A stretch of DNA of 64,000 bases, from NCBI GenBank assembly GCA_964539655.1, contig CAZIJH010000003.1, positions 12,113 to 76,112 on the forward strand. The letters are read 5' to 3'. Position 1 is the first letter of the stretch. Each line of letters starts with the position of its first letter. Of this stretch, positions 1,699 through 5,469 are shown piece after piece. The notes beneath the pieces are model-generated. The model saw nothing but the letters and a program-made list of their open reading frames with translations. It was not told where the DNA came from and searched no databases. The stretch is from an uncultured archaeon. GTDB taxonomy: Archaea > Aenigmatarchaeota > Aenigmatarchaeia > CG10238-14 > SCSR01. Made by a program: the position numbers and the translations under genes.

Positions 1699-1712
1699 CG
1701 AAAGATTTAAAT
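1699..1712 (+). promoter_or_regulatory. Candidate BRE/TATA promoter for the pre-23S transcript (may also serve the divergent gene)
   Basis: CGAAAGA followed by TTTAAAT. Confidence 0.5.
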
Positions 1713-1784
1713 GTTCTCACTGACTATAAAATTATTACTTCGGTGTCAGGTATGGCAGAATAAAAATCTGCATTGGCCTTTTGT

Positions 1785-1875
1785 CTAGCTGTGATTGTGT
1801 CCCAAAGTTCTGACATGATTCGTATTCTCGATTCAAAATCCAAAAGATGAAGACACCGGACACCTATTGAGCTGG
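1785..1875 (+). ncRNA. Box C/D guide RNA 1 in the 23S 5' leader (D guide predicted for U2552)
   Basis: Terminal stem CTAGC/GCTGG; C GTGATTG 1791-1797; D' CTGA 1810-1813; C' ATGAAGA 1847-1853; D TTGA 1867-1870; guide GGACACCT complementary to 5060-5067. Confidence 0.72.
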
Positions 1876-1957
1876 AATCAAACGGAAGTCCAAAACAAGA
1901 TCTGGTCTGGAGTTTTATGCACATCCGCATCTGCTGCGTTGCGGGTCGAAGAGTGTA

Positions 1958-2061
1958 GGTTGATGATTACAAATTCACTCTGACATATGTGTTGCAAAAC
2001 ATGCGATAAAAAGCATGTTTCGCCGTATGGAAAATGAAGAGCGAACTGTCTACAAGAAACC
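1958..2061 (+). ncRNA. Box C/D guide RNA 2 in the 23S 5' leader (D guide predicted for A2600)
   Basis: Stem GGTT/AACC; C ATGATTA 1963-1969; D' CTGA 1980-1983; internal hairpin; C' ATGAAGA 2034-2040; D AAGA 2054-2057; guide CGAACTGTCT 10/10 complementary to 5109-5118. Confidence 0.75.
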
Positions 2062-2070
2062 GTTAAAATA

Positions 2071-2110
2071 TGACACTATCATAGGATTAAGCTGGTCAAA
2101 GAGGTCTGGT
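2071..2110 (+). other. 5' arm of the 23S processing stem
   Basis: TGACACT-A-TCATAGGATTAAGCTG-GTCAAAG-AGG-TCTGGT pairs with 5431-5469. Confidence 0.9.
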
Positions 2111-4473
2111 TTCAACACCAGCCACTTGGTGGATGGCTTTGGCTTCGATTTGCTGAAGAAGGACGTGCCAAGCTGCGATAAGCTCGGGTTATCCGCATGG
2201 AGGATTCGACCCCGAGATCTCCTAATGGGATTCCTTCTCTTCGGAGAATTCCGCGAGGAATAGGAACGTGGTGAAGTGAAGCATCTTAGTCAACCATGGG
2301 AAAAGAAGACAATAGTGATGTCATTAGTAACGGCGAGTGAAAGTGACGGAGGGCAAACCGAACTTCCGCCGAAAGGCGGCAAGGATGTGGGGTTGTAGGA
2401 CTTGGGTCTTTCTCAAACCGCAGAGTCGAACTTCCCTGGAAAGGGAGGCATTAAAGTGTGACAGCCACGTAGACGAATGCGGGAAAGAAAATGCCGAGTA
2501 TCCTGAATAGCGTTTCTCGGATATGAAGCGCGAACCTGGCAGGATTAACTGCCAACCCTAAATACAAACGAAGTCCGATAGCGTACTAGTACGGTGACGG
2601 AACGCTGAAAAAAACTGCGCGAGCAGGGTGAAAAGAGTCTGAAACCAAGTTGGTATTAGTCAGTCATGGCGCGGAAGGTTCCAGCAGGAAGGAAAAAACT
2701 GCGAAGTTTCAGTACGATTGCTGGATTACAGTGTCATGACGTCCGTTTCGAAAAATGGGGCAGGGAGTTTGCCTCTGCGGCGAGGTTAATCGGTCTAAGC
2801 CGAGAAGCCGTAGCGAAAGCGACAGGGCCGTGACATCGCAAGATGCGTGGGCCGCCGTATGAAAGTGCGGGAAGTCGCTGGGGCAAGACCTGAAGCCGGT
2901 CGATCTAATCCTGGTTAGGCTGAAGTCCTGCGAAAGCAGGGTGGAGGGCCGTTACCGATTGTGAGCTGCCAATCCTTCGGGTGAGCCGGGATTAGGGGTG
3001 AAAAGCCTAACGAGACCGGGGATAGCTGGTTCCTCTCGAAATGCATGTAAGTGCAGTCTGGATCGAGCAGGCCCGTAGGGTAGAGTTACTAATTGGGAAG
3101 TCAAGGGTCGAAAGACCCAGCTTTGCTGTTAAACTCCGAACCTATTGGCTGCGTGGAAGTCTGGAATGAGTTAGTATGGTTAAGCTATACTGTCGAAAGG
3201 GGAACAACCCAAACTGAGGTTAAGGCCTCTAAATGTCAGCTGAACGTAGAAGGGAGTCTGAATCCACAAACAGTAGGGCTGTAGGCTCAGAAGCAGCCAT
3301 CAGTTAAAAAGTGTGTAATAACTTACCTACCGAGGATTTGGGCCCTTAAAATGGAAGAGACTAAGCTGACTGCCGAAACCCCAGCTTGAGAAAGAGTAGA
3401 GAGGCGTGCCGTGTGGACAGAAGCATCTGCGTGAGCAGTTGTGGACCGCGCGGCATTGAAGATCCTGCCATGAGTAGCAACATAGTTGAGTGAGAATCTC
3501 AACCGCCTAAAGGACAAGGGTTTGCCAGCAATGTATGTCAGCTGGCGGTTAGTCGGTCCTAACGCCGCACTTTACCGTAGCGGTGGAAAGGGAAATCGGT
3601 TAATATTCCGATACCATGAGAGTACGAATGCGGCAACGCAAGCCGCGATTCTGACGTTTCCGGATAGGGTGACGCAAGTCAACCGATACAGACCTGTGGA
3701 GTCTTGTAACGAGGAGAAACAGGTCAAAGCGGGAGCAGCCCTGCGTATGCAGGGTTCATCCGATTCCAGGAGCCCGTGAAAAGGAATCGCGGAAGAATCT
3801 TTCATGTCCGTACCGAGAACCGTAACAGGTGTCCATGCTGAGAAGGCAAAGGCGTGTTGGGTGAAACCAGTCTAGGGAAATCGGCAAATTAGTTCCGTAC
3901 CTTAGGTATAAGGAATGCCTGTTTCCCCGCAAGGGGAAGCAGGTCTCAGTAACAAGGGGTAAGCGTCTGTTTAACAAAAACGCAGGAGACTGCTAATGAG
4001 AAATCATGTGTATAGTCTCTGAGTCCTGCCCAGTACTGGTCGGTTAAAACCATTTTCAAGTGGTCTAAGCCCCAGTAAACGGCGGCAGTAACTCTGACTG
4101 TCGTAAAGTAGCGTAATCCCTTGCCGTTTAATTAACGGCCTGTCTGAATGGATTCACGACTTGCCCGCTGTCCCAGGCTGGTGCCCAGCGAAATTGCCAT
4201 TCTGGTGAATAAGCCAGAGACCTCCAGTGGGAAACGAAGACCCCGTAGAGCTTTACTGCAGTTTGTTGTTGTGGTAAAGTTTCTGTTGCATAGCGTAGCT
4301 AGTACCCGTCATAGGCTTAGGTTTTGGCCGAAAGCCGAGGGGAAAGTGTAACACTAGCCTTCAGGGACTTTACTGCTTACCTGCAAAGGGACAGCAGCAG
4401 ATGGGCAGTTCGGCTGGGGCGGTACGACCTTGAGAAGGTATCAAGGTCTCCCAAAGTTCAGCTCATCCGGGGC

Positions 4474-4685
4474 ATGGTGCAAGTCGCATTTTGCCTCGAG
4501 AAGGAGCAAAAGCTTTCTAATCGAGGTGTTTTCGGGAAATTTTCTCAGAAGCTTTGACGCGGTGATTATTACCGTTCCAGTCTGAAACAGAATGAAGACG
4601 GAGGTAGCTGATGAGCGTCCATAATGAGAATTTTTTATCCGAATACATTTTAATTACGATTTGTGATCGATTTGCATCACCCGAC
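4474..4685 (+). other. 23S rRNA BHB intron 1 (212 nt, helix 84 loop)
   Basis: Canonical BHB: TC-CGGG-GC^A / CCCG-AC^A-GA plus 12-bp stem TGGTGCAAGTCG/CGATTTGCATCA; splicing restores TCCGGG-GCAGAAA-TCCGGA. Confidence 0.93.
4556..4619 (+). ncRNA. Box C/D guide RNA 3 inside intron 1 (D guide predicted for U2438)
   Basis: Stem GACGC/GCGTC; C GTGATTA 4562-4568; D' CTGA 4582-4585; C' ATGAAGA 4592-4598; D ATGA 4611-4614; guide GAGGTAGCT 9/9 complementary to 4815-4823. Confidence 0.8.
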
Positions 4686-4857
4686 AGAAATCCGGAGTAG
4701 AGTGCAAACGCAAAAGCTGGACTGACTGGATTCCGCAAAGCGAGGAATCCAGCTGCGAAAGCATGGGTTAGCGATACATCGTGGACTCTTAATGGGTCCC
4801 GGTGGTCTAAGAAAAGCTACCTCGGGGATAATGGGCCCGTGGCCGGTGAAAGCCCAC

Positions 4858-4988
4858 AGTGGTTTTCGCTCCCACATTTGAATCTGATAGCAAGAGCATC
4901 AGTGTTCGGTCAAAAAAGAACACGAACACGGTGTTCTGAACTAGACGATCTTCCAATTCGAAGGAGTTGATATATTCCAAACGGGTAT
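4858..4988 (+). other. 23S rRNA BHB intron 2 (131 nt, helix 89)
   Basis: BHB: AA-GCCC-AC^A-GT / AC-GGGT-AT^A-TT; splicing restores GAAAGCCCACATTGACCCGG. Confidence 0.9.
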
Positions 4989-5087
4989 ATTGACCCGGCG
5001 CGTTGGTGCGTCGCTGTCGGCTCCCCCTCACCTGGCTGTGCAGCAGCAGCCAAGGGTACAGGTGTCCACTGGTTAAAAGGGGACGCT

Positions 5088-5121
<34 letters not shown>

Positions 5122-5430
5122 GCTATCTACTGGAGGTGCTGGTTGTCTGACCGGAAGGAGGAATAAGTACGAAAGGAACATCCCTCCGCGGCCTCTAGTG
5201 TATCGGTTGTTCATTGCAAAGCCGAGCAGCCAAGCCGTGCGCGGATAAATCCTGAAAGCATCTAAGGACGAAACCGCCCGGGAATAATAGACAACCATTC
5301 CGAATCTGACGCGCAAGCGCCGGTAATCGGACAAGGGCTCTCGTAGAAGACGAGTTTGATGGGAGAGGGGTGTAAGATCCAAGATTTCGATCGAGGATTT
5401 CAGCCCGCTCTTCCCAACAGCCTGAGGTTG

Positions 5431-5469
5431 GCCAGACTTTGATAAACAGCTTAATCCTATGAAGTGTCA
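5431..5469 (+). other. 3' arm of the 23S processing stem
   Basis: GCCAGA-CTTTGAT-AAA-CAGCTTAATCCTATGA-AGTGTCA is complementary to 2071-2110. Confidence 0.9.

Follow-up and report, generated by a model that had tools for sequence, protein, structure and literature searches.

A probable box C/D guide RNA in the 5' leader of an archaeal 23S rRNA precursor, with A2600 as its predicted target

Box C/D guides are usually treated as separate trans-acting genes. The 23S rRNA leader described here raises the question of whether such a guide can instead be a fixed part of its substrate's own precursor. The window, that is, the whole 64-kb stretch of DNA that was analysed, comes from an uncultured archaeon of Candidatus Aenigmatarchaeota, and the element of interest occupies positions 1958-2061. 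A first-pass annotation proposed that it is a methylation guide or a folding chaperone of the A2602 region, and the sequence and structural features of an archaeal box C/D guide are supported by the analysis.

The window carries a lone archaeal 23S rRNA gene at 2107-5436 (Rfam RF02540, 2430 bits). Its 3330 nt exceed the 2987 positions of the RF02540 model, hence the gene carries insertions. In several relatives (e.g., L036, L042, and L043), domain V is shifted by hundreds of nucleotides, which suggests further insertions or introns in their 23S. The 16S rRNA gene is absent upstream of the 23S, and none was found in the 0.77-Mb assembly using the RF01959 profile and a primer-like motif. The leader presents the following features at its two sides:

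1701-1713, plus strand: TATA-like box AAAGATTTAAATG, read from the sequence
2071-2094, plus strand: 5' strand of the 23S processing stem, pairing with 5447-5469 in a cofold

The TATA-like box is likely the promoter of a transcript comprising the leader and the 23S, and TTTAAAT-like motifs are found at a similar upstream distance in the four leaders of family f4 that were inspected. When the end of the leader is cofolded with the trailer, 2071-2077 pairs with 5463-5469 and, after a bulged A2078, 2079-2094 pairs with 5447-5462. A bulge-helix-bulge-like alternative with bulges of 3 and 2 nt can be drawn around CATA/TATG; the canonical bulge-helix-bulge was not confirmed by the cofold, in which the minimum-energy structure has a 1-nt bulge. 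The annotated distance of 9 nt between the element and the processing stem was reproduced, with the element ending at 2061 and the cofolded stem starting at 2071. Concerning transcription, RNA libraries were screened in 16 runs, each with at most 0.14 of the sampled words, and contigs of four distant libraries cover the window only from about position 2099 onward. A coding function of the element region was discarded, as the overlapping ORFs are all short and the pattern of conservation is not codon-like.

The leader (1690-2400) was searched in 61 related genomes, 40 of which gave a match. In the family-level matches, the similarity starts at 2031-2035, which is the C' box, and not at the 5' end of the 23S. 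Alignments and parsing revealed one architecture in 33 distinct leaders of Candidatus Aenigmatarchaeota, although these relatives are kin and the counts overstate their independence. The common order is a stem of 3-4 bp, a 3-nt bulge, GA, two pairing positions, a spacer of 9-13 nt, CTGA, a loop or hairpin, xTGAxGx, a spacer of 12-14 nt with CGAACTGTCT, nnGA, and the 3' strand of the stem. The 10-mer and the flanking boxes are present in 33/33 leaders of the f1/f5/f6 type and in 4/4 of the f4 type inspected; their absence from orthologous leaders was the observation that the first-pass annotation had named as evidence against itself. In the window, the element is composed as follows:

1958-1961, plus strand: 5' strand of the terminal stem, GGTT, pairing with 2058-2061
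1962-1964, plus strand: K-turn bulge GAT, 3 nt, as in the parsed leaders
1963-1969, plus strand: C box ATGATTA, in a register backed by covariation
1970-1979, plus strand: D' spacer CAAATTCACT, 10 nt, variable between relatives
1980-1983, plus strand: D' box CTGA (CTGA in 30/33 leaders, CCGA in 2/33, CAGA in 1/33)
1984-2033, plus strand: insert between D' and C', 50 nt, folding as a hairpin (1984-2029) with a GAAA linker
2034-2040, plus strand: C' box ATGAAGA (xTGAxGx in 33/33 leaders)
2041-2053, plus strand: D spacer, 13 nt, holding the guide CGAACTGTCT at 2042-2051, complement of 5109-5118
2054-2057, plus strand: D box AAGA, non-canonical (family consensus nnGA, GA invariant)
2058-2061, plus strand: 3' strand of the terminal stem, AACC, pairing with 1958-1961

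The ends of the element present the geometry of a terminal K-turn: the stem covaries, the bulge has a constant length of 3 nt, and the GA/GA is invariant. The bulge between the stem and the GA measures 3 nt in 33/33 parsed leaders (GAT, TGT, AGT, or AAT); it is followed by the sheared pairs G1965.A2057 and A1966.G2056, and T1967-A2055 and T1968-A2054 extend the non-canonical stem. The C box could also be read as TGATGA at 1961-1966, but this was rejected, as the structure backed by covariation uses the second GA (1965-1966) instead. In the accepted register, the C box ATGATTA matches the canonical RUGAUGA at 6/7 positions and the D box AAGA matches CUGA at 2/4. The C box compensates the odd D box, the deviating positions of both boxes pairing with each other.

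Alignment of the 33 leaders (A1) provides the statistical side of this structure. The GA of the C box and the GA of the D box are invariant. The four pairs of the terminal stem are paired in 94.7% of cells and three of them change on both sides, giving variants such as GGTT/AACC, GGCC/GGCC, GGTC/GACC, and GGC/GCC. The pairs beside the sheared G.A covary as well (UA, GC, AU, and CG at one position, UA and AU at the other), so that positions 1 and 2 of the D box covary with positions 6 and 5 of the C box. Considering the six Watson-Crick positions, 88.8% of cells are paired versus 71.9% in shuffles, five of the six pairs change on both sides (35 cells), and the covariation score was reached by 0/500 shuffles. 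When the partner is slid by 1-3 columns, pairing drops to 35-67%.

The internal D'/C' pair is formed by CTGA (1980-1983) and ATGAAGA (2034-2040), with a G-C pair between position 6 of C' and position 1 of D' in 33/33 leaders, and in the window it is closed by a hairpin and not by a short K-loop. This hairpin of about 50 nt had been annotated as a replacement of the K-loop, and 1984-2029 does fold as it was drawn, at -16.7 kcal/mol on its own. Inserts of 20-74 nt occupy the same site in 10/33 leaders, the window included, and their sequences are unrelated; the leaders that lack an insert have a D'-C' loop of 3-9 nt. In 9/10 insert-bearing leaders the hairpin begins directly after D', and in 6/10 three unpaired nucleotides are left before the GA of C', so that with this 3-nt bulge the K-loop becomes a standard K-turn. 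In the window, the hairpin and the GA of C' are separated by 6 nt versus the 3 nt of a standard K-turn, which counts against the interpretation of the element as a guide.

Archaeal C/D RNPs work best with spacers of about 12 and 12 nt. The D spacer measures 13 nt in 26/33 leaders, 12 nt in five, and 14 nt in two, and the D' spacer ranges from 9 to 13 nt, with 10 nt in the window. For the complete element, the fold energy is -26.4 kcal/mol (z = -2.35), and 6/200 shuffles fold at least as well. The minimum-energy fold pairs 1969-1981 with 2038-2049 (ACA/TGT, TTC/GAA, and CTCT/AGAG); in this model, parts of the orphan D' spacer bind to the C' box and to the D guide, which may be accidental or may mean that the guide masks itself. 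The D' spacer at 1970-1979 is an orphan in that no run of at least 8 pairs was found on the 23S of the window, where the best runs reach 7 pairs, in a target search that covers the 23S only, the assembly having no 16S.

In some relatives the D' spacer has a recognizable partner. It ends in (A/T)CAGCG in 9/33 leaders (L036, L038, L044, L045, L005, L025, L069, L072, and L075), and in the four of these with domain V available (L036, L038, L044, and L045) it forms 9-10 pairs with the equivalent of E. coli ~2500-2510, with N+5 at the equivalent of U2504 or 2503. This D' guide has been lost in the window. It pairs across a divergent stretch (~2497-2503): aligned with E. coli, the equivalent of A2503 in the window (5014) is C, and 2497 and 2499 also differ. 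A2503 is normally very highly conserved, hence the peptidyl transferase centre of this organism is unusually divergent.

The D spacer holds the central evidence. Its target is:

5109-5118, plus strand: helix 93, 3' strand, including the A2602 bulge (E. coli 2598-2607)

As previously annotated, CGAACTGTCT (2042-2051) is exactly complementary to 5109-5118 and has no further occurrence: the 64 kb contain two matches, on the plus strand at 2042-2051 and on the minus strand at 5109-5118, with 0.14 expected. The correspondence with E. coli 2598-2607 also holds, the same 10-mer being present there on the annotated E. coli 23S (2904 nt), and the region from the A loop to helix 93 aligns ungapped to this molecule (L106), with 5111 as A2600, 5113 as A2602, and 5063 as U2552. 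For the strands of helix 93 at 5109-5118, we presume the pairing scheme of the known helix. The D guide forms 10 Watson-Crick pairs from N+3 to N+12. The first-pass annotation placed N+5 at A2600, and counting from the D box AAGA (2054-2057) leads to the same residue, N+5 being T2049, opposite A5111. The predicted 2'-O-methylation site is most likely A5111, that is, A2600. We know of no report of a methylated A2600.

The match of the 10-mer by itself is at chance level. In dinucleotide shuffles of the leader (1690-2106, 417 nt), a 10-mer complementary to the 23S appeared in 563/1000 (56%), with a mean of 0.84, and the real leader has two. The second one (1928-1937 versus 4394-4403) was rejected as a chance match, as only 0-6 nt are complementary in the 15 relatives parsed. 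The helix 93 10-mer is kept in every relative and the second 10-mer is not, hence it is the conservation and not the match that carries the case. The target 10-mer is identical in 17/17 relatives with domain V captured (3/20 fetched stretches did not show domain V). In A1, the guide columns are invariant or nearly so, and the D' spacer, the loop, and the insert vary. The guide variants among the 33 leaders are an A to G change in two, which keeps a G.U pair with the target, a missing last T in three, and a change of the last two positions in one. A second site for the guide lies beside the P loop (4402-4412, 11 pairs including 2 G.U); it was judged secondary as a target, being broken without compensation in 2/16 relatives (L042 and L054). 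Across the 33 leaders, N+5 falls on A2600 in 27, on C2601 in four, and on G2599 in two. This one-nucleotide shift in 6/33 would fit selection on pairing at least as well as selection on one ribose.

The element is not the only box C/D unit in this transcript:

1785-1875, plus strand: sibling box C/D unit ('guide 1'), with the same build as the 1958-2061 unit
4555-4619, plus strand: compact C/D-like unit inside the 23S, with stem GACGC/GCGTC, CTGA, ATGAAGA, and ATGA

The sibling unit presents a CTAGC/GCTGG stem, a TGT bulge, the D' box CTGA (1810-1813), a 33-nt insert, the C' box ATGAAGA (1847-1853), and the D box TTGA (1867-1870). Its N+5 is A1862, opposite T5063, which corresponds to U2552 in the A loop, and U2552 is the target in 10/10 leaders parsed (10/21 were parsed by regex). 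The ribose of U2552 is reported as methylated in all domains (PMC7994747). The sibling guide covaries with the A loop: GGGCACC faces GGTGCCC in L036, L040, and L044, and GGACACC faces GGTGTCC in the window, L037, and L041. Among the 10 leaders, a compensatory change of guide and target occurs in three and a mismatch in one (L052). Between both leader units there is also a conserved hairpin (~1915-1955, plus strand), present in f1, f4, f5, and f6 leaders, with ATGCA..ATCC as 5' flank, GGGT(C/T)GAAGAG as 3' flank, and a variable loop; its 3' flank (GGTT GAA GA) looks like another K-turn strand.

The compact unit sits in an insertion of ~230 nt that is found ~140 nt downstream of the P loop. Its D' guide pairs with 4413-4424 through 12 pairs (3 G.U), with N+5 at G4417, which is G2251 of the P loop, and its D guide forms 9 pairs with 4815-4823. 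With a strict pattern, this unit recurs at the same place in L039 only, among 20 relatives. In the whole genome, a strict C/D descriptor gave 4 matches versus 0-2 in 5 shuffles and missed the sibling unit, and a loose one gave 19 matches versus 5-8 in 3 shuffles, both being too weakly discriminating to count the guides of the genome.

Regarding the protein machinery, the genome encodes fibrillarin (275.8 bits) and Nop5 (223.9 bits), adjacent on contig C2, and L7Ae (99.7 bits), all of them above the Pfam cut-offs. No Rfam C/D family reached its gathering score in 1690-2120; the best C/D hit was snoR10, with 19.5 of 65 bits, on the sibling unit, and the canonical units of the f4 leaders gave no Rfam C/D match either. 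The archaeal C/D families of Rfam are guide-specific, so the lack of a match is weak evidence.

The distribution of the element was followed with a 15-base signature, TGANNNNCGAACTGTCTNNNNGA, found in 48/371 genomes of the class, all of them in one order (28/69 in family f1, 13/23 in f4, and 6/19 in f5), and many of the signature-negative MAGs carry no rRNA, so that misses are not equivalent to absences; the reversed-pattern control gave 0. The window's own genome has one copy. In 30/30 loci fetched from three families, the signature lies 63-169 nt upstream of the conserved 5' motif of the 23S. Beyond the order, 2/5 genomes tried from other orders, a small sample, had a match to the 5' end of the 23S, and the helix 93 10-mer (at most one mismatch) was in neither of the two leaders. 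Genomes L107 and L108, from other families of the class, present elements resembling the A-loop guide ~130-210 nt upstream of the 23S, with a spacer ending in ACACCTA followed by TTGA, and L108 has only the 8-mer CGAACTGT, ~55 nt before the 23S. Leader-borne guides may extend beyond the order.

The f4 leaders have a different arrangement. In the four inspected, there is one nearly canonical dual-guide unit, with the C box and a CTGA D' box on either side of the 10-mer and an A-loop guide in front of the D box. In all 14 f4 matches listed, N+5 is A2600, reading CGAACTGTCTCTCTGA. The same guide in the same register in two architectures is, from this comparison of leaders, the strongest single argument that the register matters.

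Taken together, 1958-2061 is probably a box C/D guide RNA that forms an integral part of the 23S precursor's 5' leader. This guide RNA would form an RNP co-transcribed with its substrate and is predicted to methylate A2600. The reading as a C/D guide is based on the covarying K-turn stem, the D'/C' pair, the 10-bp guide that is invariant throughout the order, the mostly constant N+5, and the presence of the protein genes. The points counted against it are the non-canonical D box, the absence of an Rfam match, the spacers of 10 and 13 nt, and the orphan D' spacer. Concerning A2600 in particular, the shifts of N+5 in 6/33 leaders count against it, as does the fact that the published archaeal helix 93 guides aim at C2606 (PMC4644070).

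In the proposed mechanism, L7Ae would bind both kinks, and Nop5 and fibrillarin would assemble there. The RNP would form on the nascent leader and remain linked to the 23S under synthesis up to the cleavage of the processing stem; as transcription reaches the 3' strand of that stem last, the leader RNP would still be attached while domain V is made. As domain V emerges, the guide would capture the helix 93 strand across the A2602 bulge, and fibrillarin at the D box would methylate A2600, which lies five nucleotides away from it, on the 2'-OH. At a more speculative level, the pairing may briefly delay helix 93 folding, or set its order, beside the A loop, the target of the sibling unit (U2552), and once the stem has been cut the unit may survive as a small RNP that acts in trans. 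A chaperone contribution is plausible, as the guide would replace the 5' strand of helix 93 and pair with the bulged A2602.

Sequence alone cannot tell methylation from chaperoning, and the alternative that deserves most attention is a factor of assembly that acts by pairing only. While the rRNA is being transcribed and folds, the leader RNP or the leader RNA by itself would then hold the A2602 bulge together with the 3' strand of helix 93, as U3 or U8 do in eukaryotes, and no methyl group would be transferred at this site. In six of the 33 leaders N+5 moves to C2601 or G2599 and the 10-bp pairing is kept, which would fit selection on the pairing, and the degenerate nnGA D box and the unequal spacers point in the same direction. 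The guide also approximates the 5' strand of helix 93, as we take this helix to pair, plus one U opposite A2602, so that it would compete with the helix. In addition, chaperone roles have been proposed for archaeal C/D sRNAs (PMC4644070, PMC3608112). However, the sibling unit, which also has an nnGA D box, falls exactly on U2552 in every leader parsed, and the unit inside the 23S falls on G2251, hence the N+5 geometry is in use in this operon. Moreover, the f4 leaders keep the same guide in the same register beside a canonical CUGA box, and 27/33 leaders place N+5 at A2600. Pairing only is considered unlikely, and methylation guided from the leader remains the preferred explanation.

Another alternative is a C/D sRNA of the usual trans-acting kind, which would take advantage of the strong rRNA promoter, be cut out of the transcript, and act on other 23S molecules, its position in the leader having no mechanistic meaning. 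Most archaeal C/D sRNA genes have no promoter of their own, and their products are matured from longer transcripts. For maturation, it is reported to be enough that the sRNA is inserted into any transcribed context (Tripp 2017, cited in PMC7994747). Nevertheless, the position is fixed in the 30 loci of three families, the window's own genome (G000) has a single copy, and the units carried by this one transcript are directed at three neighbouring regions of its own peptidyl transferase centre, which together make this alternative quite improbable. It differs from the leader-borne, co-transcribed guide preferred here only in acting in trans and not in cis, a point that the sequences cannot settle. 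Finally, chance complementarity in a leader conserved for other reasons, such as an L7Ae-bound K-turn serving precursor processing only, has in its favour the frequency of complementary 10-mers in shuffled leaders and the lack of conservation of the other leader 10-mer, but it can hardly be the explanation, as no part of the element is more conserved than the helix 93 10-mer, which is placed exactly between C' and D with the spacing of a guide and is also kept, between C and D', in the rearranged f4 architecture.

In a wider and more tentative proposal, which we regard as possible but less likely than not, the 23S precursor of this order would guide its own modification: U2552 and A2600 from the leader, the vicinity of U2504 by the D' guide in some lineages, and G2251 from the insertion in the 23S, in cis, with one guide per rRNA, and before the stem is cut. 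If this is the case, it would be a cis-snoRNA arrangement that is not known to have been described for any rRNA, and it could represent the ancestral state or have arisen in response to genome reduction. The leader guide by itself, if it holds as a fixed part of its substrate's precursor across an order of uncultured archaea with very small genomes, would provide a natural setting in which to ask if rRNA guides act co-transcriptionally and in cis, and it would help to account for the retention of fibrillarin, Nop5, and L7Ae in genomes with no annotated guide genes. It would also mean that a D box reduced to nnGA is tolerated when the C box changes in compensation, which bears on the search for guides in metagenomes, and it predicts Am2600 next to A2602.

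Regarding the literature, no published description of C/D units in archaeal rRNA leaders was found in full-text searches, from which subscription journals were largely outside. The genomic contexts of archaeal C/D sRNAs given in a 2021 review (PMC7994747) are ORF overlaps, clusters, tRNA fusions, and cis-acting tRNA introns, and rRNA leaders are not among them there. On the other hand, helices 90-93 are described as a hotspot for archaeal C/D guides, for which chaperone roles have been proposed (Dennis et al. 2015, PMC4644070). In the same source, the base of helix 93 (C2606) is a predicted target in six thermophiles, and one of these six guides is a dual guide of Nanoarchaeum equitans, aimed at the C2606 site and at alignment position U2826. 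By arithmetic, U2826 is in the A loop, as it lies 54 nt before 2880 and U2552 lies 54 nt before C2606. The D spacer listed under the name of this N. equitans guide in the supplement of PMC4644070 does not look like a helix 93 guide.

The element resembles these archaeal helix 93 and A-loop C/D sRNAs (PMC4644070) in having C/D and C'/D' boxes and guides of about 12 nt on domain V helices 90-93, and it resembles the N. equitans dual guide in that helix 93 and the A loop are combined. It differs from them in lying within the 23S leader and not in a separate locus (leaving aside the position of the N. equitans gene relative to the 23S), in placing N+5 at A2600 and not at C2606, in its nnGA D box with compensating changes in the C box, and in the hairpin that takes the place of the K-loop.

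A precedent for the cis arrangement is found in tRNA introns. The intron-borne C/D guide of halophilic archaea belongs to tRNA-Trp. As in that case, the guide here belongs to a segment that the precursor later loses, its target is in the mature part of the same transcript, and a processing stem of the splicing type adjoins. In contrast, the substrate here is the 23S rRNA, the guide is in the 5' leader, and the target is ~3 kb away versus tens of nucleotides. Such C/D sRNAs in tRNA introns are reported to act in cis (D'Orval et al. 2001, cited in PMC7994747).

The element can also be compared with the eukaryotic chaperone snoRNAs U3, U8, and U14. In 1997, Dennis, Russell and Moniz de Sa reportedly proposed 'U3-like sequences' within 16S leaders (cited in PMC3608112). 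In both cases, as here, the pairing of a C/D RNP or of a leader with the pre-rRNA is thought to order its folding. However, U3, U8, and U14 act in trans, and the 1997 proposal concerns the leader of the small subunit, whereas the unit described in this work is a complete C/D unit in cis on the precursor of the large subunit.
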